From the IMG/VR virus record IMGVR_UViG_3300032017_000004, positions 1-24,655 of that record: a stretch of 24,655 nt of DNA; one strand, 5' to 3'. Made by a program: the position numbers and the translations under genes. Origin of the DNA: a virus (taxonomy: Duplodnaviria > Caudoviricetes). Under the pieces are notes generated by a model. It searched no databases. It was not told where the DNA came from and was given only the letters and a program-made list of their open reading frames with translations. Below are positions 8,760 through 24,655 of the stretch, one piece after another (the stretch's first letter is position 1; every line of letters begins with the position of its first letter).

Positions 8760-8805
8760 TGCTATCTCCTGATTGTGTGGGACAACGGGTAAGCACCCGA
8801 TGCAG

Positions 8806-8888
8806 TCTCCGAGACGGGACTCGAACCCGCGACTTCCCTCCCTCTGCTGGATGCCAGGGAGATAGCTCTGCCGCTGAGCTACTCGGAG
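8806..8888 (-). tRNA. tRNA-like RNA with aberrant, extended anticodon arm (identity not assignable)
   Basis: CTCCGAG/CTCGGAG acceptor stem, TA, D arm GCTC-AGCGGCA-GAGC, T arm GCGGG-TTCGAGT-CCCGT; anticodon plus variable region 33 nt versus ~22; no encoded CCA. Confidence 0.75.
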
Positions 8889-12214: not shown

Positions 12215-12748
12215 CTACAGGTCGTCGTCCTCGTCGAAGTCGTCCTCGACGACCGGCGCGGCGGGAGCGGCCTTGGCGCGACGGCGACGGGTGGACGGCT
12301 TGGGAGCCTCCTCCTCGACCGGCGCGGCAGGGGCAGCGGCACCGCGACGGCGACGCGAGGGCTTGGCGGGGGCGTCGTCCTCGTCGGCGGCGGGAGCAGC
12401 GGCCTTCGCAGCGGCGTCCGCCTCCTTCTTGGCCTTCGCGGCGGCGGCACGGGCGGCCTTGTCCTTCTCGGCCTGCTCGCGCTTCTCGGCACGCTCCTGG
12501 GCCTTCTGCGCCCGGGTCTCGACCGCCTTCTCCGCGTCCGCTCGGCGCTTCTCCAGGGCCGCCTGGTTCTCCGGCGACTTCTGGAACTCGATGCGCAGGG
12601 AGCAGGCGAGCTGGACCGTCTTCAGGTCGACCTCGTCCTCCTCCAGGCCGACGTGCTCGACGAGCCAGGCAGCGAACCGGCGGTGCAGCTCGGTGGGCTC
12701 CTTGTCGGCCAGATGTGCGAACTGCGGGCCGTCTTCGGTGTTCGTCAT
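12215..12748 (-). CDS. unknown protein, PTELH family paralog 1
   Basis: PTELHRRFAAW...DLKTVQLA...EFQKSPENQA plus A/K/E-rich tail; ATG 12748 with GGAG RBS. Confidence 0.85.
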   Translation of the reverse strand: MTNTEDGPQFAHLADKEPTELHRRFAAWLVEHVGLEEDEVDLKTVQLACSLRIEFQKSPENQAALEKRRADAEKAVETRAQKAQERAEKREQAEKDKAARAAAAKAKKEADAAAKAAAPAADEDDAPAKPSRRRRGAAAPAAPVEEEAPKPSTRRRRAKAAPAAPVVEDDFDEDDDL

Positions 12749-12770
12749 GAGGTTAATCTCCATCGTCGAT

Positions 12771-12791: not shown

Positions 12792-12819
12792 CTCCGAAAA
12801 GTCGAAGCGAGTTCCGCTC

Positions 12820-16702: not shown

Positions 16703-17700
16703 CAGCCCTCCAGGGCGGTGCGCGAGCCGTCGGTGATGTCGCCCGCACGCCGACCCAGATCCGCGCGCTTGCCCTCGGCGGAGCCCCGGTCGTACGCGCT
16801 CCAGTCCATCTTGGGCGCCTTGTACTTGGCCTTGGACTTCTTGCCGTCGTCCTTGCGCTGGGAGGCGTGCAGACCGTGGAGCATCTCCAGGTCCTCCATC
16901 GCCTTCTTGACGCGGTCCTTGCGGCCGACCAGGGCGAGCTCAGCGCCGGATCCTGCCGTGCTGCGGACCTCCTTGCCGACCTTCTCCAGGTCCCACAGGC
17001 GCGTCCGGATCTCGCTGACGAACCCGTCGGCGAACGACCGGCGGAACTTCTTCGGGTCGGCGATGGCCACGTACTCCAGGCCGTTGTCGCGGCAGTGACG
17101 CTTGGCCGCTCGGATCAGTCGGCCGCCGTCCTTCTTGCCCTGGCCGCGCCCGTCGACCTCCCAGGGGGTGATCGGCCAGGACTCGGCCAGCGAGCGAACC
17201 GGCGCGTTGTACCGCGCCTGCTCCATCATGTGGGCGATGGACTGCCACTTGATCCCGGCCTCGTGCAGGGTGTAGACGTTCTCGTCGTAGCCCTTGTTCG
17301 GGTCGGCCTTGGGGTCGACGCGCTGGAGGAGCTGGAGACGGATGGAGGCGTACATCATCTCCGCGTAGTCCAGGTCCTTCTCGTAGCCGACCATGTAGCC
17401 CTCGCCGGACCAGAAGCCCAGGAACTCGCAGCCGGTGTGGTTGGCCGTGGCGGAGATCAGGGAGAACAGCTGCTCCAGCAGCGGGCTGAAGCCCTCGGCG
17501 AAGGTGATGCGGCGGGTGTCCGGCTTGTCGTCGATGCCCTGGGCCATCTTGGCCTGGGCCAGCATCGCCTCGTCGATCTGGTACTTCTTCATGATGCGCT
17601 CGGCGGCCTCGCGGTACGTCTGGGCCTCAGCCTCGATGTCGGTCGCCTCGGCCTTGTTCAGCATCGCCTGGACGCGCGCCATCAGGTTGTTGTCAGTCAC
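16702..17700 (-). CDS. DUF2786-domain protein
   Basis: RVQAMLNKAEAT..EAEA...AERIMKKYQID N terminus; FRRSFADGF; AYDRG..EG.RADL C terminus. Confidence 0.85.
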   Translation of the reverse strand: MTDNNLMARVQAMLNKAEATDIEAEAQTYREAAERIMKKYQIDEAMLAQAKMAQGIDDKPDTRRITFAEGFSPLLEQLFSLISATANHTGCEFLGFWSGEGYMVGYEKDLDYAEMMYASIRLQLLQRVDPKADPNKGYDENVYTLHEAGIKWQSIAHMMEQARYNAPVRSLAESWPITPWEVDGRGQGKKDGGRLIRAAKRHCRDNGLEYVAIADPKKFRRSFADGFVSEIRTRLWDLEKVGKEVRSTAGSGAELALVGRKDRVKKAMEDLEMLHGLHASQRKDDGKKSKAKYKAPKMDWSAYDRGSAEGKRADLGRRAGDITDGSRTALEG

Positions 17701-17711
17701 GGTTACTCCCT

Positions 17712-17768
17712 GGACTCCTCAGCATGGGTACCTTACCCACGGACACCGCTGGGTGCGGTGTTTCGTCC
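17712..17768 (-). ncRNA. type II hammerhead ribozyme HH-A
   Basis: GGAC-GAAA-CACCGC/GCGGUG-UC^-CGUGGG/CCCAUG-CUGAGGA-GUCC; cleavage 17742/17741. Confidence 0.93.
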
Positions 17769-17781
17769 TGGTCGGGATGGA

Positions 17782-17916
17782 TCAGTCGAGCACTACATTC
17801 AGCAGGACCGTGAACAGGATCCCTGCTGCGAACCCGGTGCCCACGACGACGAGGAGCAGAAGCCCGAAGGCTCTTGCGCAACCCTCGCCGTCCGGCTGCT
17901 GGAACTTCTCGCTCAC
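17782..17916 (-). CDS. small membrane protein (44 aa)
   Basis: GTGA-coupled start; FGLLLLVVVGTGFAAGILFTVLL. Confidence 0.7.
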   Translation of the reverse strand: MSEKFQQPDGEGCARAFGLLLLVVVGTGFAAGILFTVLLNVVLD

Positions 17917-18200
17917 TGGAGCGCGTCCCAGAGGGTGCGCGGCGCGTAGGAGCTGTACGGGCTGGAGCCGGACACGCCGTCCAGAGCGAGCCATACGGCG
18001 TTGCGTTCCAGGTCGGCCAGCGGACGCTCCTCGCAGTAGTCGGCGAGCTCCTCTCCGGAGATCGCGCCGACGACGACGTTCGTGAGCGGGTAGGACGGCT
18101 GCACGCCGCAGAGCACCTGGACCTCGGCGGGGTCGATCCCGCTCTCTTCCAGGTCAAGGGCGATGGCCGCGAGCTTGTCGAGCAGCTCACCAAGCTTCAT
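17913..18200 (-). CDS. hypothetical protein
   Basis: 95 aa, GGAGG RBS directly after HH-B. Confidence 0.85.
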   Translation of the reverse strand: MKLGELLDKLAAIALDLEESGIDPAEVQVLCGVQPSYPLTNVVVGAISGEELADYCEERPLADLERNAVWLALDGVSGSSPYSSYAPRTLWDALQ

Positions 18201-18211
18201 GCTTCCTCCAC

Positions 18212-18275
18212 GATCTCGTCAGCACCCGTGCCTTACGGGCGGACCGCCGTGACTGGCTGCCACGGGGTTTCGATC
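18212..18275 (-). ncRNA. type II hammerhead ribozyme HH-B
   Basis: GAUC-GAAA-stem III-GUC^-CGCCCG/CGGGUG-CUGACGA-GAUC; cleavage 18242/18241. Confidence 0.92.
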
Positions 18276-18285
18276 TGGCTGTGGA

Positions 18286-18372
18286 TCAGGTACCGGTCAG
18301 GCCCTTGATTGCGCTCAGCAGCAGGACACCGGCGATGATGCCGACCATGCAGCAGAGCAGGAACTTGCCCAT
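18286..18372 (-). CDS. 28-aa hydrophobic peptide
   Basis: MGKFLLCCMVGIIAGVLLLSAIKGLTGT; GGAGG RBS, TGATG coupling. Confidence 0.6.
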   Translation of the reverse strand: MGKFLLCCMVGIIAGVLLLSAIKGLTGT

Positions 18373-18455
18373 CACTTCCCTCCCACTGCTGCAGCGAAAT
18401 TGTACAGGAGGATGAACAGAACGGCTCCGGCGAGGATCGCCTTGGGCCAGCTCAT
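18372..18455 (-). CDS. 27-aa hydrophobic peptide
   Basis: MSWPKAILAGAVLFILLYNFAAAVGGK; AGGAG RBS. Confidence 0.6.
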   Translation of the reverse strand: MSWPKAILAGAVLFILLYNFAAAVGGK

Positions 18456-18463
18456 GGAAACTC

Positions 18464-18604
18464 CTACTGGTTGTTGGGGTCGGTGTCGTGCTGCTCGTGT
18501 ACCAACGGCGGACCGGCGGGCTGCCCCTGGTTGCTGATGGGCAGGCTGATCATCGGCTGGACGCCCTGCTCGGGCAGGTCCCTGGGGCAGGCCTCGTCGC
18601 TCAC
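18464..18604 (-). CDS. small hypothetical protein (46 aa)
   Basis: GTGA-coupled, GGAG RBS, GC3-rich codons. Confidence 0.5.
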   Translation of the reverse strand: MSDEACPRDLPEQGVQPMISLPISNQGQPAGPPLVHEQHDTDPNNQ

Positions 18605-19056
18605 AGCTCGGTCTCCACGAAGCCCGCACCGTCCAGGGCGGACTGTACCGGGTCATGCCCGAGGATCCAGCGCTGCGGCGGGTCGAGCCGGAGGATCCGG
18701 CCGTCGATGCGGATCTTCTCGTTCGTGAGGCGCTCCACCTCGAAGCAGAGCCACTCGATGTTGAGCCACGCCGGGACCGTCGCGCTGCTGTGCGTGAATA
18801 TCGAGGAGACGGCCGCGTGCACGAACGGGTCGGTGGCCACATCGGCCAGGGCCGGACCCAGGCCCAGCTCCTCGTTGCGCGGGTTGGACCGCTTGTTGTC
18901 GAGGTACCAGGACATGTCGTCGTCCGCCATCGACTTGAGCCGCTGCACCTCGTGTGCGCGCTCCGTGGCCTCGGGGCCGGTGAACAGCGCCACGAGTTCG
19001 GCGTCGTCGCACCCCTCGGTCGCCTTGTACAGGAGGACGACCTTCTCTTGATCCAT
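18601..19056 (-). CDS. hypothetical protein
   Basis: Start trimmed to ATG 19056, AAGGAG RBS after HH-C. Confidence 0.8.
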   Translation of the reverse strand: MDQEKVVLLYKATEGCDDAELVALFTGPEATERAHEVQRLKSMADDDMSWYLDNKRSNPRNEELGLGPALADVATDPFVHAAVSSIFTHSSATVPAWLNIEWLCFEVERLTNEKIRIDGRILRLDPPQRWILGHDPVQSALDGAGFVETEL

Positions 19057-19068
19057 TTGTACTCCTTG

Positions 19069-19121
19069 AGAGCTCCTCAGCACCGGCTCTTACCGGCGGA
19101 CACCCGAAGGTGTTTCGCTCT
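19069..19121 (-). ncRNA. type II hammerhead ribozyme HH-C
   Basis: AGAGC-GAAA-CACC(UUCG)GGUG-UC^-CGCCGG/CCGGUG-CUGAGGA-GCUCU; cleavage 19099/19098. Confidence 0.95.
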
Positions 19122-19127
19122 TGTGGA

Positions 19128-19172
19128 CAGCGCCCCGGGAGGTTGGGGTGGTCGTCCTCCCCCGGGGCGCTG
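19128..19172 (-). terminator. stem-loop after paralog 2
   Basis: cagcgccccgg...ccggggcgctg 11-bp inverted repeat with further inner pairing. Confidence 0.55.
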
Positions 19173-19185
19173 CCGTCTGTGGGTG

Positions 19186-19686
19186 TTACTTGACCGGCTC
19201 GGCGCCAACCGTCCGGCGGGAGCGACGGGCTCGGGGCTTGGGCGCCTCCTCGACCTTCGGCTCCTCAGCGGCCTGCTCGGTGACCTCCGCCTTGACCTCG
19301 ACCTCGGCGGCGACGGGCGCCTCTTCGGTCTTGGCCTCGTCCTCGGCGGGCTTGTCCTCCGCCTTGGGCTCCTCGGTGGCCGGAGCCGCCTCGGTGACGA
19401 CCGCGCTGCTCAGCTTGGCCAGCTCCTTCTCCAGAGCCGCCTTGCGCTTGGCGACACGCTCGGCCTCCTTGGCAGCCGCCGCGTCCTTCTTCGCCTTGAG
19501 GGCGGCCTGGTTGTCGTCGCTCGCCTGGAAGTCCATGCGGAAGGCGACGGCCAGCTGGACCGTCTTGAGGTCCGCCTCGACCCCGGTCTGCTCCAGGATC
19601 CACTTGGCGAAGCGCTCGTGCAGCTCCGTGGGGGCGGAGGCAGCGCGCTCGGCGAAGGACTTCTTCTTGCTGTTGTTGTCGGTCAT
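19186..19686 (-). CDS. unknown protein, PTELH family paralog 2
   Basis: PTELHERFAKW...DLKTVQLAVAFRMDFQAS..NQA; ATG 19686, AAGGAG RBS after HH-D. Confidence 0.85.
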   Translation of the reverse strand: MTDNNSKKKSFAERAASAPTELHERFAKWILEQTGVEADLKTVQLAVAFRMDFQASDDNQAALKAKKDAAAAKEAERVAKRKAALEKELAKLSSAVVTEAAPATEEPKAEDKPAEDEAKTEEAPVAAEVEVKAEVTEQAAEEPKVEEAPKPRARRSRRTVGAEPVK

Positions 19687-19699
19687 GACTTGCTCCTTG

Positions 19700-19770
19700 G
19701 GACTCCTCAGCACCGGCGCTCTACCGGCGGACCATCGGGGCGGCCTTGCGACCGCCCCTAGGTTTCGTCC
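19700..19770 (-). ncRNA. type II hammerhead ribozyme HH-D
   Basis: GGAC-GAAA-stem III-GUC^-CGCCGG/CCGGUG-CUGAGGA-GUCC; cleavage 19730/19729. Confidence 0.93.
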
Positions 19771-19823
19771 TGTCTATGTTGTCGTGCTTCTCACGCACCC
19801 GCCGGGACCTACCGGCTGCTTGT

Positions 19824-20027
19824 GCGAGGCGCGTCAGGCAGTCGATTACCTGAGCTTCGGGTTTTGTGGAGGACCCGTTCCTGTCTCCAAGGCTGCATTT
19901 GCTGCTACCGACCTCTTGCCTGGCCGCCCTACTCGGTGCTCGCGGTCTCCGGCTCGGAAGCTTCGTCTCAACCTCGTACTCGGCGCTGCGGCCGTTCCGG
20001 GGAGTCGCTTCCTGCCCTCTCGCTTAC
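19824..20027 (-). ncRNA. putative structured ncRNA/leader, copy 1
   Basis: No credible CDS; conserved blocks and compensatory stems shared with 23064-23268. Confidence 0.6.
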
Positions 20028-20063
20028 GAGTAGAACTATGCCCCATATCGGCGCCGGAGGCAA
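20020..20063 (-). promoter_or_regulatory. repeated promoter motif P2
   Basis: TTGCCT-N17-CATAGT-TCTACTCGTAAGCGA. Confidence 0.75.
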
Positions 20064-20069
20064 CCCCTC

Positions 20070-20160
20070 GTCTACCTGCGCATTCATCACGTTTGCCCTG
20101 GTAGGAGGCTCGCGAAGTTTCTCCATCTTTTTTGGAGAAGTTTCAAATGCGCAGGTAGAC
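20070..20160. repeat. operator-like repeats upstream of P2
   Basis: Perfect 15-bp inverted repeat gtctacctgcgcatt/aatgcgcaggtagac plus internal gtttgccctggtagg. Confidence 0.65.
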
Positions 20161-20219
20161 CTGAGTGCGACGCGTCTACGGCGATTCACCGTGGGCCAGG
20201 GCGAATCGGGCGAAACACC

Positions 20220-20585
20220 CTAGAGAGGCAGGAGCTTCCACAGGTTGCCGTTGGGCGTGCGCACCACATCCTGGCCGTCGTTGGTCTTGCCGACCATCTC
20301 GATCAGCAGGGTGTCGGCCTTCCTCGGCGCCTCGGGAACGGGCACGACCTCGACCGCCTTGGCCTTGCGGGCCCCGGGGATGTTGCCGACCTCCCACGTG
20401 TTGCCACGATTGACGACCTTGATGTAGTTACCCAGGGACGTCTTCTCCAGGGTCCGACGCATGGCGTAGCGGACCTGCTCGCCGGTCAGGCCGGTTGCGG
20501 CCACGATCTCGGTTGCCGTCACCACCTCGTTCGCGCGGGTCTTCAGGTAGGCAATGACGTCGTTGGAGATGTTCTGTGCGGGCAC
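20220..20585 (-). CDS. putative HTH DNA-binding protein
   Basis: VTATEIVAATGLTGEQVRYAMRR; GTG 20585, AAGGAG RBS after HH-E. Confidence 0.75.
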   Translation of the reverse strand: MPAQNISNDVIAYLKTRANEVVTATEIVAATGLTGEQVRYAMRRTLEKTSLGNYIKVVNRGNTWEVGNIPGARKAKAVEVVPVPEAPRKADTLLIEMVGKTNDGQDVVRTPNGNLWKLLPL

Positions 20586-20603
20586 TGTTACTCCTTGTTG
20601 ATT

Positions 20604-20672
20604 GAGCTCCTCAGCACGGGCCATTACCCGTGGACACCGTGGCGGCTGTCGGGCCACCCCGGTGTTTCGCTC
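20604..20672 (-). ncRNA. type II hammerhead ribozyme HH-E
   Basis: GAGC-GAAA-CACCG..CGGUG-UC^-CACGGG/CCCGUG-CUGAGGA-GCUC; cleavage 20633/20632. Confidence 0.93.
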
Positions 20673-20909
20673 TCATCGCTCGTTGGTGTCGATCTGCACC
20701 GTCACGGGAACGTTGAACCTGGACGGGTGCGAGCCGTCGTTGTCGTCTTCCATCCAGGCCACGTCTGCGAGTTGCAGGAAGTCAACGAACCGGGCGGCCA
20801 TCAGCATGTTGGGGAACGTGAAGCTCCTGATGCCGAGAGTGTTGAACCCCAGCTCGCCGTTGAACGCCGTCACGGAGTCCAGCATCCGCGAGATCTGACT
20901 CTCGTTCAC
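20673..20909 (-). CDS. hypothetical protein
   Basis: 78 aa, GAGGAGG upstream, GC3-rich; stop abuts HH-E. Confidence 0.7.
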   Translation of the reverse strand: MNESQISRMLDSVTAFNGELGFNTLGIRSFTFPNMLMAARFVDFLQLADVAWMEDDNDGSHPSRFNVPVTVQIDTNER

Positions 20910-21231
20910 GTCTCTCGTCCTCCTCGCTGTTGCGCTCCCGGTACATCCGGAAGGCTCGGCGCAGCGTACCCGGCAGGACGCCGTAGGAGCGCGCTAGGGC
21001 GGCCTGCGAGCCGTTGCCGGTCCCGGCGGCCAGCCACTCCGCGTAGAGCTCCTCTACGGGCTTAGGGAGCTTCACGTATCGGTGCGCGGTGCCTGTGATC
21101 CGGCGTACCCGCTTGCGCACCTGGGACTCGTTGCAGCCATACACGGCGGCCGTGCGGGTGTTGTCGTTCCCGCACAGCGCGCGCATGGCCATGAGTTCCG
21201 CATCCGACTCGGGCAGGATGCGAGCCGTCAT
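20782..21231 (-). CDS. putative tandem-HTH protein
   Basis: TAAVYGCNESQVRKR and QAALARSYGVLPGTLRR; AAAGGA RBS; 3' end overlaps next gene by 128 nt. Confidence 0.7.
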   Translation of the reverse strand: MTARILPESDAELMAMRALCGNDNTRTAAVYGCNESQVRKRVRRITGTAHRYVKLPKPVEELYAEWLAAGTGNGSQAALARSYGVLPGTLRRAFRMYRERNSEEDERRERESDLADAGLRDGVQRRAGVQHSRHQELHVPQHADGRPVR

Positions 21232-21232
21232 G

Positions 21233-21313
21233 TCAGTGGTCCTTTCCGCCTGTCGTCCCGCTGCCGCCGTTGTCCTGTCCGTCGTTGGTCTTGCCGTGCT
21301 CGTCGCCGCCCAT
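21233..21313 (-). CDS. 26-aa Gly/Asp-rich peptide
   Basis: TGATG-coupled, MGGDEHGKTNDGQDNGGSGTTGGKDH. Confidence 0.4.
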   Translation of the reverse strand: MGGDEHGKTNDGQDNGGSGTTGGKDH

Positions 21314-21471
21314 CAGTACGCCTCTCCGTACAGGTCGGTGGCGTCCGCGTCCGGCGGCTGCACCTGCTCGGTGGGCGTGTGGCCTCGGGTCTCCGCCTGC
21401 ACGATCGACAGAGCCTCGTTGGGTCCGGCGGGCTCGTGGGTCACGTTGTGGCCACGGGGTACGTCAGGCAT
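21313..21471 (-). CDS. small hypothetical protein (52 aa)
   Basis: GAGGAG RBS, GC3-rich, coupled to neighbours. Confidence 0.55.
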   Translation of the reverse strand: MPDVPRGHNVTHEPAGPNEALSIVQAETRGHTPTEQVQPPDADATDLYGEAY

Positions 21472-21712
21472 TGGTCTCCTCGCTGATGTCGAACTGGATG
21501 ACGACGGGCTTGTCGAACGCGACCTGGCTCACGCCGTTCTCGTCGCTCCGGATCCGGGCGACCTTACGGAGCCCCGACAGGAGGATGTAGTCGGACGCGC
21601 ACAGCAGGTCCTCGAACTCGACGTCCATCATGTAGCCATCGTCGCCCAGGATCTTGCCACCGAAGTGGACGCAGTTGCGCTCCACCGTCGCCTTGATGCT
21701 GGCACCGCTCAT
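21464..21712 (-). CDS. hypothetical protein
   Basis: 82 aa, AAGGAG RBS after HH-F. Confidence 0.8.
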   Translation of the reverse strand: MSGASIKATVERNCVHFGGKILGDDGYMMDVEFEDLLCASDYILLSGLRKVARIRSDENGVSQVAFDKPVVIQFDISEETNA

Positions 21713-21726
21713 AGCTCTCCTTCTCG

Positions 21727-21791
21727 GGACTCCTCAGCACAGCCTCTTAGCTGCGGACCATCGGGCCCTTGGAGGGCCCTAGGTTTCGTCC
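21727..21791 (-). ncRNA. type II hammerhead ribozyme HH-F
   Basis: GGAC-GAAA-stem III-GUC^-CGCAGC/GCUGUG-CUGAGGA-GUCC; cleavage 21756/21755. Confidence 0.93.
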
Positions 21792-21799
21792 TTACGGCC

Positions 21800-22432
21800 T
21801 TACGCGCCGAACTCAGCCCGGCGCATGACCGACTTGATGCCGTGGCTCTTGACGAGCTCCGTCGCCCGCTGGAAGCACGCCTCCTCGTCGAGCGGGTCGA
21901 TGACCTCCAGGCGCTCCGTGTCGACCGTGGCCGGGTAGCGGAAGCCCTCCATGTTGTCGACCTTGAACACGCCCACCTTGCCGTAGCGGTTGAAGTCGGA
22001 GGGCTTGATCGCCTCGATGACGCCCTCGCACCCGACGTACCGGCCCTTGGTCGTCTTGGACTTGACGCGCTTCCCGTAGGAGGGCGTGCTCCACTCGCGG
22101 ATGTACTGCTCGGTCAGGTTGGCGATCATGATCGCCTCAGCCGCCGCGATGACCTCGGGGGTTGCGTCGATGGCGCAGTGGTTGTGGTAGGTCCAGCCAC
22201 GAGTCGTCGCGTACTGGACGACCTTGACCTTGCCCTCTTCCTTGTCGAGGACGATCGCCATGAAGTCGCTGTCGTCGTACATGTTGCGCTCGAAGGTGTC
22301 GATGACGCAGTCGACATAGGTGACCTCGTGGGCCTGCTCGACGTGCGCCTGGAACAGGCCGTTCTGCTCGCTGTACGAGTTGGGGTTGTAGCCCTCCGGC
22401 AGGTTGGGGTTGATGCACGTGATGATGGGCAC
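21800..22432 (-). CDS. hypothetical protein
   Basis: Start trimmed to GTG 22432 (AGGAGG RBS after HH-G); 210 aa. Confidence 0.85.
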   Translation of the reverse strand: MPIITCINPNLPEGYNPNSYSEQNGLFQAHVEQAHEVTYVDCVIDTFERNMYDDSDFMAIVLDKEEGKVKVVQYATTRGWTYHNHCAIDATPEVIAAAEAIMIANLTEQYIREWSTPSYGKRVKSKTTKGRYVGCEGVIEAIKPSDFNRYGKVGVFKVDNMEGFRYPATVDTERLEVIDPLDEEACFQRATELVKSHGIKSVMRRAEFGA

Positions 22433-22445
22433 GGGATCCTCCTGG

Positions 22446-22512
22446 GGACTCTTCAGCAGCGCCTCTGTAGCGCCGGACCGTCGCCCCGGTTGCCCGGGGC
22501 TAGGTTTCGTCC
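22446..22512 (-). ncRNA. type II hammerhead ribozyme HH-G
   Basis: GGAC-GAAA-stem III-GUC^-CGGCGC/GCGCUG-CUGAAGA-GUCC; cleavage 22476/22475. Confidence 0.93.
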
Positions 22513-22515
22513 TGG

Positions 22516-22758
22516 TTACTTCTCCATGCTCTGGCCGATGAGGCACCAGGCGCACTCTTCGGAGAGCTCGGGGAACTCCCGCTTGATCTGCACGAAGAGC
22601 TTCTGCGCCTCCGCGTCCTTCTCCGCCCATGCCGGCATGCAGCCGGGCAGCGGGATGGGCTGGCCCAGCGAGAGGGCCATCGCGTCGAAGTCGGCCGCCA
22701 GCATCAGCGTCGCGTCGTCGGCGGGCTTGTCGGTGATGACCTGGGCTACCGCGTACAT
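22516..22758 (-). CDS. hypothetical protein
   Basis: 80 aa, AGGAGG RBS after HH-H. Confidence 0.8.
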   Translation of the reverse strand: MYAVAQVITDKPADDATLMLAADFDAMALSLGQPIPLPGCMPAWAEKDAEAQKLFVQIKREFPELSEECAWCLIGQSMEK

Positions 22759-22769
22759 GCTTCCTCCTG

Positions 22770-22843
22770 GAGCTCCTCAGCAGCGCCGTTCAGCGCCGGA
22801 CGGCCGGAGCCCCGCTGGCTGCGGGGCCCGGACCGTTTCGCTC
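22770..22843 (-). ncRNA. type II hammerhead ribozyme HH-H
   Basis: GAGC-GAAA-CGG..CCG-UC^-CGGCGC/GCGCUG-CUGAGGA-GCUC; cleavage 22799/22798. Confidence 0.93.
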
Positions 22844-22974
22844 TACTGCTTCGGCGGGTTCGCGACCTCGACTACAGCCGCGTCCTCGCCCCACCCGGCC
22901 TGTGCGGCGGGCAGATCAGCCGGAAGCTGGATGACCTCGGCGTCGTTCCCGAGGTGCTGCTCGTTCTCGGCCAT
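22843..22974 (-). CDS. small acidic protein (43 aa)
   Basis: MAENEQHLGNDAEVIQLPADL...; AAGGAG RBS after HH-I. Confidence 0.7.
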   Translation of the reverse strand: MAENEQHLGNDAEVIQLPADLPAAQAGWGEDAAVVEVANPPKQ

Positions 22975-22986
22975 GTTCTCTCCTTG

Positions 22987-23052
22987 AGACTCTTCAGGAC
23001 CGCCGTTCAGCGGCCGACCCTCGGGGCTTGTGCAGCCCCTCGGGTTTCGTCT
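22987..23052 (-). ncRNA. type II hammerhead ribozyme HH-I
   Basis: AGAC-GAAA-CCC..GGG-UC^-GGCCGC/GCGGUC-CUGAAGA-GUCU; cleavage 23016/23015. Confidence 0.93.
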
Positions 23053-23063
23053 TAGTTGGTTTC

Positions 23064-23268
23064 GCGAGGCGCCTTGCCCCGCGCTTCGGCGTTACCGCCT
23101 ACCGGTTTTGTGGAGGTCCGGTGCCTGTCTAGAGTCAGCGGCCCTTGCGGGGCGCGATCGCAGCCGTCTCTCTTGGCTGTCCTACCGGGGCTCGCGGTCT
23201 TCGGGCGGATCCTCGACCGTCGGCTGGAGTCGCCGTCCCGGGAGTTCCTGTCCTGCCCTCTCGCTTAC
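23064..23268 (-). ncRNA. putative structured ncRNA/leader, copy 2
   Basis: Homolog of 19824-20027, nearly identical length, compensatory stems. Confidence 0.6.
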
Positions 23269-23303
23269 GAGTAGAACTTTACTCCATGTCGACAGAAACG
23301 CAA
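23261..23303 (-). promoter_or_regulatory. repeated promoter motif P3
   Basis: TTGCGT-N16-TAAAGT-TCTACTCGTAAGCGA. Confidence 0.75.
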
Positions 23304-23311
23304 AACAGCTC

Positions 23312-23397
23312 CTACCTGGTCAAACGCGCGTTTGCCCTGGTAGGGGGCTTGCAAAGTTTCTTGAAGTTTTTTCCGGAAGTGCGAATGCCCTGGTAGG
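23312..23397. repeat. operator-like repeats upstream of P3
   Basis: ctacctggtcaaac (inverted), gtttgccctggtagg, aatgccctggtagg. Confidence 0.6.
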
Positions 23398-23519
23398 CGG
23401 CTTGCGGCCCTACGCGCTCGCGTAAGGGGCTAGGGAGCGCCCGATGGGCCAGGGGCCCGGACTGCCGGCATGCGGCCGTTACGCGGCCACGTAGCCCGGC
23501 GCACGACCCCGGAACGCAG

Positions 23520-23549
23520 GACAGCCCCGGCTGGTAGGCCGGGGCTGTC
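23520..23549 (-). terminator. stem-loop after paralog 3
   Basis: gacagccccggc-N6-gccggggctgtc, perfect 12-bp inverted repeat. Confidence 0.6.
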
Positions 23550-23562
23550 GGAGCGGGGCTGG

Positions 23563-24189
23563 TCAGTCGTTCAGGCGACCGGCGCAGGGCAGGGTGTTGT
23601 AGGCCATGTAGTTCTCCTTGACCGAGTCCTCGCCGAACTCCTCCGGGGAGTAGATGTGGGCGGTGATCTCGGTGTGGGAGTGAGCCATCAGGGTCTCCTT
23701 GGAGTAGCCCTGCTTGCGGGTCTTCTTCTTGAGGTCGGCGCACCCGAAGGCGTGGACCTCGGGCTCGCCCATCCCGCCGTAGACGAGGGTCAGCTTGACC
23801 GGGGTCGTGTCGATCTCCTGCTCGGCGACAGCGGCCTTGACCTCGGCCTCGTCGTCGCTGAGGGCCTGGTCGGCCTCGGAGTCGTACTCCTCGGTCGCCG
23901 CGACCTTGCCGGTCAGCTTGGCGAGCTCGGCCTCCAGCTTGGCCTTCTTGCGGGCCGCGCTGGCCTTCTTGGTGGCGGCTGCAGCGGCCTTCTTGGCGGC
24001 CAGGACGGCCTGGTTCTCGGGGGAGGCCTGGAAGTCCATCCGGAAGATCACGGCGAGCTGGACGGTCTTGAGGTCGGGCTTGATGCCGGTCTCGGCCTCG
24101 ATCCACTCGGCGAAGTGGCGGTGGAGCTCGGTCGGCTCGACAGCTGCGCGCTCGGCGATGGTCTTCGCGGTGGCGGTGGTCTTGTTCAT
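23563..24189 (-). CDS. unknown protein, PTELH family paralog 3 (extra C-terminal domain)
   Basis: PTELHRHFAEW...DLKTVQLAVIFRMDFQASPENQA; GAGGAG RBS. Confidence 0.88.
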   Translation of the reverse strand: MNKTTATAKTIAERAAVEPTELHRHFAEWIEAETGIKPDLKTVQLAVIFRMDFQASPENQAVLAAKKAAAAATKKASAARKKAKLEAELAKLTGKVAATEEYDSEADQALSDDEAEVKAAVAEQEIDTTPVKLTLVYGGMGEPEVHAFGCADLKKKTRKQGYSKETLMAHSHTEITAHIYSPEEFGEDSVKENYMAYNTLPCAGRLND

Positions 24190-24210
24190 CGTGATCTCCT
24201 CGGTGGTGTT

Positions 24211-24259
24211 CCCTCTTGCTTACAGAGAGAACTCTACGCCAGTCCAGTCCAGTTGGCTA
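24211..24259 (-). promoter_or_regulatory. repeated promoter motif P4 (variant)
   Basis: TAGCCA-N17-TAGAGT-TCTCTCTGTAAGCAAGAGGG. Confidence 0.65.
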
Positions 24260-24343
24260 CCTCCAACCGCGACTTTCTTCAAGATTCTTTTCCAGCACCC
24301 CGTGGCGCGGCCGCCCGGCGGGGAGTCCGGGCGGCTGGCCGGT

Positions 24344-24547
24344 TCAGTGGGTCTTGCAGATCCGGTACTCGCGGACCGTGGGCATCCCGTAGTAGACGGG
24401 GCGCGGGCTGCCGTCCTCGTTGGTGTACAGGATCGGCTCGGAGTGGATCACGGTCTCGCCGTAGGTGGTGCTGATCTTGCACAGGCCGCAGATTGCCGGC
24501 ATGGCCGCGATCTCCAGGGCGATCTGCGCGTGCTGCTCGGGGCTCAT
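24344..24547 (-). CDS. small protein with CxxC...CxxH
   Basis: 67 aa, GAGGAGG RBS. Confidence 0.7.
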   Translation of the reverse strand: MSPEQHAQIALEIAAMPAICGLCKISTTYGETVIHSEPILYTNEDGSPRPVYYGMPTVREYRICKTH

Positions 24548-24655
24548 CTCAGGTCCTCCTCGTTGTGTAACGGTACCGCTACGGGCCCCGGGCCGGTTGC
24601 CCGGAGCCCTGGCCTGACTAGGACTGCGCGAGGCCGGAGAGGGTGCCGTAGGCCC

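Follow-up and report, generated by a model that had tools for sequence, protein, structure and literature searches.

The window analysed here, the whole 24,655-nucleotide (nt) stretch of the viral record IMGVR_UViG_3300032017_000004, is a fragment of a Streptomyces phage resembling those of cluster BN, and its minus strand encodes two related RNAs, copies A and B, which are the subject of this study. Both lie inside a minus-strand block of small genes without assigned function, downstream of which come a helicase and other replication genes (gene names are taken from relatives). We called this block the early region because of the gene layout and the density of promoters. The two copies form a duplication conserved in other phages, with covarying base pairs and no conserved open reading frame (ORF), and stand between promoter-like and hammerhead-like motifs. 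The sequence comparisons argue for a real, apparently undescribed RNA family with a supported double-pseudoknot core.

Duplicated RNAs between promoter-like and hammerhead-like motifs

The two RNAs and their surroundings comprise the following features:

20072..20158, minus strand: three operator-like boxes CTACCWGSKCA upstream of copy A (20148-20158, 20094-20104 and, inverted, 20072-20082)
20035..20063, minus strand: promoter A, with −35 TTGCCT (20058-20063), a 17-nt spacer and −10 CATAGT (20035-20040); matrix score 30.6
19730..20027, minus strand: RNA copy A, 298 nt from the predicted start (the G of GUAAGC) to the predicted hammerhead cut
19701..19769, minus strand: predicted type II hammerhead behind copy A, putative cut 19730/19729 (found with a descriptor)
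19693-19698 and 19186-19686, minus strand: ribosome-binding site (RBS) and ORF behind this hammerhead
23312..23396, minus strand: three operator-like boxes upstream of copy B (23386-23396, 23333-23343 and, inverted, 23312-23322), with an A-tract
23276..23303, minus strand: promoter B, with −35 TTGCGT (23298-23303) and −10 TAAAGT (23276-23281); matrix score 24.0
23016..23268, minus strand: RNA copy B, 253 nt from the predicted start to the predicted hammerhead cut
22988..23051, minus strand: type II hammerhead behind copy B, predicted cut 23016/23015
22980-22985 and 22843-22974, minus strand: RBS and 43-amino-acid ORF behind this hammerhead
17709..22843, minus strand: seven further type II hammerheads punctuating both operons (descriptor), with 22798, 22475, 21755, 20632, 19098, 18241 and 17741 as the first base past the cut

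The first-pass annotation of this DNA had noticed duplicated segments of 204 and 205 nt (19824-20027 and 23064-23268). These lengths were confirmed and the duplication is real: the global alignment gave 144 identities over 221 columns and a score of 172, against 71 ± 9 (maximum 106) for 500 shuffles. The homology between the copies reaches about 130 nt upstream of the segments, across the three operator-like boxes. Six of the seven shared blocks that had been listed occur literally and in order in both copies, while the remaining one, ACUCCC..ACGGC, requires a 1-nt gap in the 23064-23268 copy. The reported CGGC/GCCG hairpin with differing loops and the change of a stem from CCGG/CCGG to CGGG/CCCG are both present, and the lengths of the leaders up to the predicted cuts agree with the approximately 300 and 250 nt expected. 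The absence of a credible coding sequence was also borne out, and no ORF is conserved; the copy B leader has no ATG, GTG or TTG on its sense strand, and among the six such codons of the copy A leader none stands behind an RBS of the AGGAG/GGAGG type and none is shared with copy B.

The helix between GCGAG and CUCGC that was supposed to close the domain of about 205 nt fared less well, with no covariation support. CUCGC is found 3′ of the core in only 6 of the 30 homologs with a located start, and the pairing probability in a pseudoknot-free model was 0.22 for copy A and 0.57 for copy B. The two strands have alternative partners (an internal GCGAG and local hairpins), and in the copy A subtype CUCGCAC fits a downstream helix instead, itself invariant and so not proven. 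GUAAGC also opens ordinary mRNA promoters. We regard the closing helix as unproven and see the 205-nt boundary as arbitrary.

The predicted start of each copy is a GUAAGC located 7 nt past the −10 box. Promoters were scored with a matrix trained on 30 such promoters, including promoters A and B, so that training and test overlap; besides these two, only four sites of the window scored above 9. A generic scan for sigma-70 promoters and terminators was uninformative and did not return a single promoter. Clusters of boxes were seen at RNA-bearing promoters in those early regions of the minus strand that were scanned, and upstream of copy A an A-tract lies between the first two boxes. The boxes are probably the binding site of an activator or a repressor. 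Two of the three form an inverted pair of about 33 bp, 8 nt upstream of the −35 element, and a related CAGGTCA word occurs upstream of promoters in a second phage group (group 2, see below).

Searching the window with the descriptor (GAAA, NUH and CUGANGA core, stems I and III closed) returned nine type II hammerheads; 30 shuffles gave no hit at all. All nine (17709-23051) are downstream of promoters A and B, and only a few bases separate each of them from the RBS of the gene that follows. Cleavage at these predicted sites would yield monocistronic mRNAs beginning with a hairpin. Five of the seven further hammerheads match Rfam RF02276 at 22.6-26.9 bits, under the 37-bit gathering score, and the two directly behind the RNAs were not among the Rfam matches at E ≤ 5 over 17000-24655. 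In relatives, CUGANGA is replaced by CCGAUGA in one common variant.

Perreault et al. (2011, PMC3088659) described clustered type II hammerheads that flank genes of prophages and phages, several of them cutting one polycistronic phage transcript, with one located just 5′ of the first early ORF in the haloviruses HF1 and HF2. The window phage shares with these arrays the clustering of type II hammerheads in one transcript. It differs in that its nine hammerheads are distributed over two operons, each opening with a double-pseudoknot RNA, whereas the available passages of PMC3088659 describe no conserved folded RNA between the promoter and the first ribozyme.

Conservation and covariation of the double-pseudoknot core

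Pattern scans of viral and metagenome contigs, completed with six GenBank regions and with chance matches dropped by context, yielded 37 distinct cores. Thirty-three are BN-type, counting both copies of the window, and the other four (L026, L046, L085 and L090) belong to group 2, whose phages are uncultured. Whole-record searches found exactly two copies in each of the complete BN-type genomes Yara, Wentworth, G004 and G005, and one copy in G002; the model R1 agrees for G001 and G002. Nine cultured Streptomyces phages, which have standard hosts and which PMC8852317 places in the lytic cluster BN, match the window and carry the family. The match of Yara to the region is 86% over the whole query, those of the other eight 74-76% over about 60%, and none of the nine records has an annotated feature beneath the matching region. 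The scan of genome contigs for host homologs gave four matches, none with the pseudoknot context, and a BLAST search of plasmids gave no homolog. Marky, Henoccus and Microdon, three cultured phages sharing flanking genes with L046, have no match to the model R1, and a protein-based search for the locus returned nothing beyond a near-identical contig.

The first-pass annotation had described a structured RNA. Single-sequence folding was unremarkable (z of +0.39 and +0.54 relative to shuffles) and, being blind to pseudoknots, was excluded from the evidence; the case for structure thus rests on the comparison of homologs, which did reveal covariation. Covarying pairs were seen in the long helix of the 5′ domain, in both of the tandem H-type pseudoknots and in the 3′ hairpins, which are variable, and the conserved core of about 170 nt includes the two pseudoknots, both of which had been missed. 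In the two copies of the window the comparison places these elements as follows:

19949..20016, minus strand: 5′ domain of copy A, a long irregular helix with the conserved core CUC-CC / GG-UY-GAG and, at its apex, a CGGC/GCCG hairpin
19888..19925, minus strand: pseudoknot A of copy A, with stem 1 GGCC/GGUC, stem 2 CAAG/CUUG and a small GCA/UGC hairpin in loop 3
19858..19886, minus strand: AGAC linker and pseudoknot B of copy A, with stem 1 AGG(A)/(U)CCU, stem 2 CGGG/CCCG and an A-rich loop 3
19792..19853, minus strand: 3′ accessory hairpins of copy A, 19834-19853 (loop AUCGAC) and 19792-19828 (UAGGUC loop, nearly invariant)
23203..23258, minus strand: 5′ domain helix of copy B, with a CUC-CCG / CGG-UC-GAG core and the CGGC/GCCG hairpin
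23131..23178, minus strand: pseudoknot A of copy B (subtype B), with stem 1 AGCC/GGCU, stem 2 AGAG/CUCU and a longer loop-3 helix
23102..23130, minus strand: AGAC linker and pseudoknot B of copy B, with AGG/CCU and CCGG/CCGG

Stem 2 of pseudoknot A exists in six versions (CAAG/CUUG, CGAC/GUCG, CGAG/CUCG, AGAG/CUCU, GAAG/CUUC and GGAG/CUCG) and is fully paired in 35 of the 37 cores. Pseudoknot B is a compact H-type fold 3′ of the GAC linker; its stem 1 varies from AGG/CCU to UGG/CCA and GGG/CCC, and its stem 2, to which the stem switch mentioned above corresponds, from CCGG/CCGG to CGGG/CCCG and CCA/UGG. Pairing was counted in four alignments. In the 5′ helix all 140 cells were paired and one pair showed a two-sided change (14 distinct rows of 16 aligned; copy A, the copies with long inserts and group 2 were left out because of indels). 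For subtype A, 207 of 207 cells (100%) were paired, with three pairs changed on both sides (22 of the 23 subtype-A cores, 14 distinct rows), and for subtype B 99.3% of 280 cells, with seven such pairs (all 14 subtype-B cores). The fourth count, which includes the 3′ domain of copy A, had 99% of 104 cells paired; in the hairpin 19834-19853, represented by only four sequences, 4 of the 7 pairs showed a two-sided change. In all four counts neither the paired percentage nor the covariation score of the real alignment was attained by any of 500 shuffles, and pairing in slid controls amounted to 17-54%. The 5′ helix of copy A also contains, at 19975-19998, an internal loop with AGUA facing GAA that is missing from most homologs and that we take to resemble the sarcin-ricin/loop E motif.

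Taking the variants of the 5′ domain, of pseudoknot A (subtype), of the pseudoknot B loop and of the 3′ domain together, we counted ten combinations, of which at least nine are genuine and one results from a truncated contig. Copy B of the window, for instance, joins the usual 5′ domain of one paralog to the usual pseudoknot A subtype of the other. Among 14 measured copies the distance from start to hammerhead was 217-426 nt, a spread accounted for by the accessory 3′ domains. Such recombination of modules and such variation in the length of 3′ domains are expected of a modular RNA gene. The upstream copy of Yara (L001, 18120-18389) and one copy of G003 (L106, 12500-12702) have a much longer and differently built 5′ domain preceding the same two pseudoknots.

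The proposal of an unrecognised structured noncoding family extending from a promoter to a hammerhead was upheld, the family being Rfam-negative and covarying. A 3′ end generated by a hammerhead is not universal, however: in group 2 a tRNA-like element or an ORF stands behind the RNA. Scanning the whole window with Rfam 15 at gathering thresholds produced only a tRNA match (8806-8888), and neither copy was matched at E ≤ 5 over 17000-24655. At E ≤ 3, two chance-level matches touched the leader or the end among eight homolog loci (16.2 and 15.8 bits, far under gathering). ARAGORN, run on the window, reported only 8805-8888, with no tRNA-like domain in the RNA copies and no conserved tag frame, and with a lowered threshold it gave noise only. 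Resemblances to RNase P, tmRNA, raiA, HDV, twister, pistol, preQ1, SRP and CsrA sponges had no Rfam support, and an enrichment of AGAC, GAGAC or GGAG motifs in seven leaders, weak and inconsistent (p ≤ 0.05 in 3 of 21 tests), was rejected. We found no description of the RNA in the literature searched, most subscription papers lying outside that search, and Streptomyces is not mentioned in the available part of PMC5737381. Three RNA candidates of DNA viruses with Streptomyces hosts, 42-76 nt long, are listed by Fremin et al. (2023, PMC10690425), and a fragment of the present family may be among them.

Possible functions of the RNA

In relatives with the commonest set of modules (14/14), the upstream copy belongs to a unit made of promoter, RNA, hammerhead and short spacer, and an RNA-less promoter about 300 nt past the hammerhead drives a hammerhead-punctuated polycistron, so that the RNA does not depend on a position at the start of a long operon. 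In each of the five annotated phages the spacer contains one small gene, and in both cases checked a strong hairpin comes after it. In Yara, nine upstream promoters lead short units without RNA or hammerhead, where most genes end in strong GC-rich hairpins, and hammerhead-punctuated operons follow the two promoters that bear the RNA; the window and G003 are alike. The window also has a promoter at 12814 without an RNA leader, the next predicted promoter being only at 174. In group 2, a tRNA-like element read by eye stands 3′ of the RNA in L026 and L090, and a short ORF directly 3′ of it in L046.

Our preferred reading, which we put forward tentatively, is that of a free-standing early RNA gene whose folded product acts in trans, as a decoy for a host protein. 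The RNA would be transcribed from the strong early promoter at the predicted start, adopt the predicted 5′ helix and two tandem pseudoknots, be cut free of the mRNA by the putative hammerhead and accumulate as a discrete species of 250-450 nt. Once released it could bind a host protein during takeover, a defence nuclease or a regulator being our guess for the partner. A candidate release device is present 3′ of the RNA in most contexts by two different routes, the hammerhead in BN phages and the tRNA-like element in L026 and L090. There is a precedent in the pseudo-ToxI RNAs of phage PhiTE, phage-encoded pseudoknot RNAs that are expressed in the course of infection and neutralise a host toxin (PMC3475682); they are our model of a host-protein decoy. 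Pseudoknot B, whose paired changes support it, is a compact H-type fold as in type III antitoxins, the targets of which are ToxN-like nucleases. ToxI differs in being an array of near-identical 36-nt repeats, whereas here two dissimilar pseudoknots stand without tandem repeat or Rfam match, and no ToxI-like array of repeats of about 36 nt was found among the listed repeat families or in the cores.

Several observations weigh against a free decoy. No partner, target or repeated binding motif was found by motif enrichment over seven leaders. Every copy stands directly behind a promoter, as expected of a cis element, and the same kind of hammerhead precedes seven other genes and so need not serve the RNA. 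In G002 (L046/L104) there is no clear release element between the RNA and a 29-amino-acid ORF, the first hammerhead being 3′ of this ORF. Two divergent copies are kept in 4/4 complete BN-type genomes searched, which a simple decoy leaves unexplained. As for the fold itself, the phages compared are related and the covariation rests on few independent changes, while the sequences used to count pairs are those from which the structures had been drawn; the two measures that count pairs were often matched by shuffles (for example 73/500 and 322/500 in the subtype A count). The independent changes, though few, affect both pseudoknots.

We hold with somewhat more reserve the proposal that a modular, ribozyme-released double-pseudoknot RNA, a new class of phage RNA effector, could seize the Streptomyces RNA polymerase or an anti-phage nuclease without the help of phage proteins. 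It would act as a free decoy, or else be the first antiterminator of the put type in actinobacteria. Such an effector would be an RNA made first, from the strongest early promoters.

The best of the alternatives, in our opinion possible and on balance doubtful, is a cis-acting antiterminator similar to put or EAR, in which the nascent RNA would bind its own polymerase and permit read-through of hairpins and of untranslated, self-cleaved stretches. A hallmark of put is contact with the β′ zinc-binding domain together with suppression of termination in cis. It was suggested by the finding that hammerhead operons occur only behind RNA-bearing promoters in Yara, the window and G003, where all hammerheads found sit downstream of such promoters and the upstream promoters lead short single-gene units with strong terminal hairpins. 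The two copies at two early promoters recall putL and putR of HK022, two related RNAs downstream of two early phage promoters (PMC9378689); as put remains active without being tethered to the polymerase (PMC9378689), antitermination would be compatible with cleavage by the hammerhead. EAR/epsC is a pseudoknot-containing RNA with antitermination activity, and STAXI, found near mobile-element genes, has tandem pseudoknots (PMC2864571). Read-through might concern the following element:

19122..19177, minus strand: long GC-rich hairpin 3′ of the first gene in operon A, resembling the hairpins that end single-gene early units in relatives

This hairpin, which we predict to be terminator-like or a 3′ barrier, has counterparts in Yara, G003 and five further relatives, so that with the window eight genomes share it, and a promoter behind it was sought without success in the window, Yara, phiRKBJ001 and Wentworth. 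The sole copy of G002 likewise heads a hairpin-rich early operon. However, in the 14 relatives of one subtype the polycistron is driven by an RNA-less promoter, the 12814 promoter leads a long stretch without RNA, and no U-tract terminator was found in the two operons. The put RNAs measure about 70 nt and have two stem-loops, the word pseudoknot being absent from PMC9378689, whereas the phage RNA has two pseudoknots in its core of about 170 nt, carries up to 250 nt of swappable domains and heads a one-gene unit in many relatives. EAR and STAXI come from other hosts and contexts, STAXI repeats one pseudoknot unit, and neither model matches, including Rfam epsC. We ranked the trans-acting RNA above antitermination because of the RNA-less promoters, that of the polycistron and that at 12814, and of the group-2 contexts.

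It is improbable that the core has ribozyme activity of its own or is an aptamer for a small molecule, serving as a ligand sponge. Compact H-type pseudoknots with few invariant nucleotides are typical of ribozymes and riboswitch aptamers, and an active or binding site could be formed by pseudoknot B, the GAC linker and the A-U pair that is invariant in pseudoknot A, in a phage that already employs many predicted ribozymes. Against this, Rfam has no ribozyme or riboswitch match besides the hammerheads, pseudoknot A exists in two subtypes with different loops, the register of stem 1 of pseudoknot B shifts between subtypes, and there is neither an expression platform nor a consistent downstream gene.

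Slightly less credible still is an RNA-only oligomer or scaffold like GOLLD and ROOL, in which stem 2 would pair between molecules and the paralogs would carry orthogonal codes. The two copies of the window do differ in a self-consistent stem 2 (CAAG/CUUG versus AGAG/CUCU), covarying pairs of GOLLD and ROOL proved intermolecular, and these too are structured multi-pseudoknot phage RNAs with one conserved and one variable region (PMC12286853). Yet they reach 650-800 nt or more, often lie near tRNA islands and form cages (PMC12286853), whereas the present RNA is smaller (250-450 nt), promoter-proximal, hammerhead-bounded and without Rfam similarity to them, and the loop lengths of both pseudoknots fit ordinary intramolecular H-type folds. 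Least probable of all is a DNA-level role (a replication origin with boxes, A-tract and RNA primer) or a small peptide encoded in the leader, to which the three conserved boxes and A-tract upstream of both copies and a 66-amino-acid ORF overlapping copy A from upstream of its predicted start might point, since compensatory changes and pairing tolerant of G-U to G-C/A-U exchanges indicate RNA, copy B lacks a start codon, homologs have indels of many sizes, and the boxes abut the −35 element as operators do.

A function is known for few phage noncoding RNAs, and hardly any work has been devoted to those of Streptomyces phages. If the RNA acts as proposed, it would be notable either way, as an RNA decoy in host takeover or as an RNA antiterminator outside E. 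coli and Bacillus. The family is suited to probing and structural work, being small, backed by paired changes and present in nine cultured phages, of which Yara, Wentworth and phiRKBJ001 make it directly testable. The order of promoter, RNA and hammerhead also offers a test of why phages cut early transcripts with ribozymes.

Traces in soil metatranscriptomes and neighbouring elements

Five soil metatranscriptome runs contain 5-9% of the words of the region. One contig spans 19767-20012 of copy A at a depth of 3.2, with a single difference, A>G at 19931, which converts a predicted G-U pair of copy A to G-C; other contigs include pieces of neighbouring genes. With depths of 2-5 and libraries that may contain DNA, these contigs indicate presence in an RNA library and not level, strand or ends. 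The runs X1-X4 gave no cover of copy B, which was not used as evidence. Of the 30 pieces listed, out of 42, 16 full-length ones were kept and 14 short partial matches dropped. None of the 16 spans any of the nine predicted cuts, for 4.8 crossings expected (p of about 0.003 under uniform placement); this was not used as evidence either, as GC-rich structured stretches may break the assembly and there was no DNA run as control. One piece (24073-24261) extends 38 nt upstream of a predicted start, so that read-through or DNA is possible.

Other elements were noted around the RNAs of the window and of its relatives. In phiRKBJ001 (L002, 12074-12387), an extra structured-looking insertion of about 170 nt lies between the hairpin that follows a gene and the next hammerhead, and a similar stretch exists in Yara after gene 80. 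In group 2, the RNA-led operon (L104, 10690-14000; L105, 2430-5000) is spaced by repeated long CUGAGC...GCUCAG hairpins and also has elements with a tRNA-like T-arm and one Rfam-level hammerhead; these spacing elements are a possible convergent means of punctuating early transcripts. The window encodes three paralogous small proteins rich in Ala, Lys and Glu (12215-12755, 19186-19686 and 23563-24189), each at or near the head of a promoter-driven unit and, for the two tested, assigned to phrog_20596/34140. Finally, the element at 8806-8888 is tRNA-like with an irregular anticodon arm (Rfam tRNA, 42.5 bits) and stands inside the middle operon, upstream of a gene, where it is possibly a processing signal instead of a tRNA.

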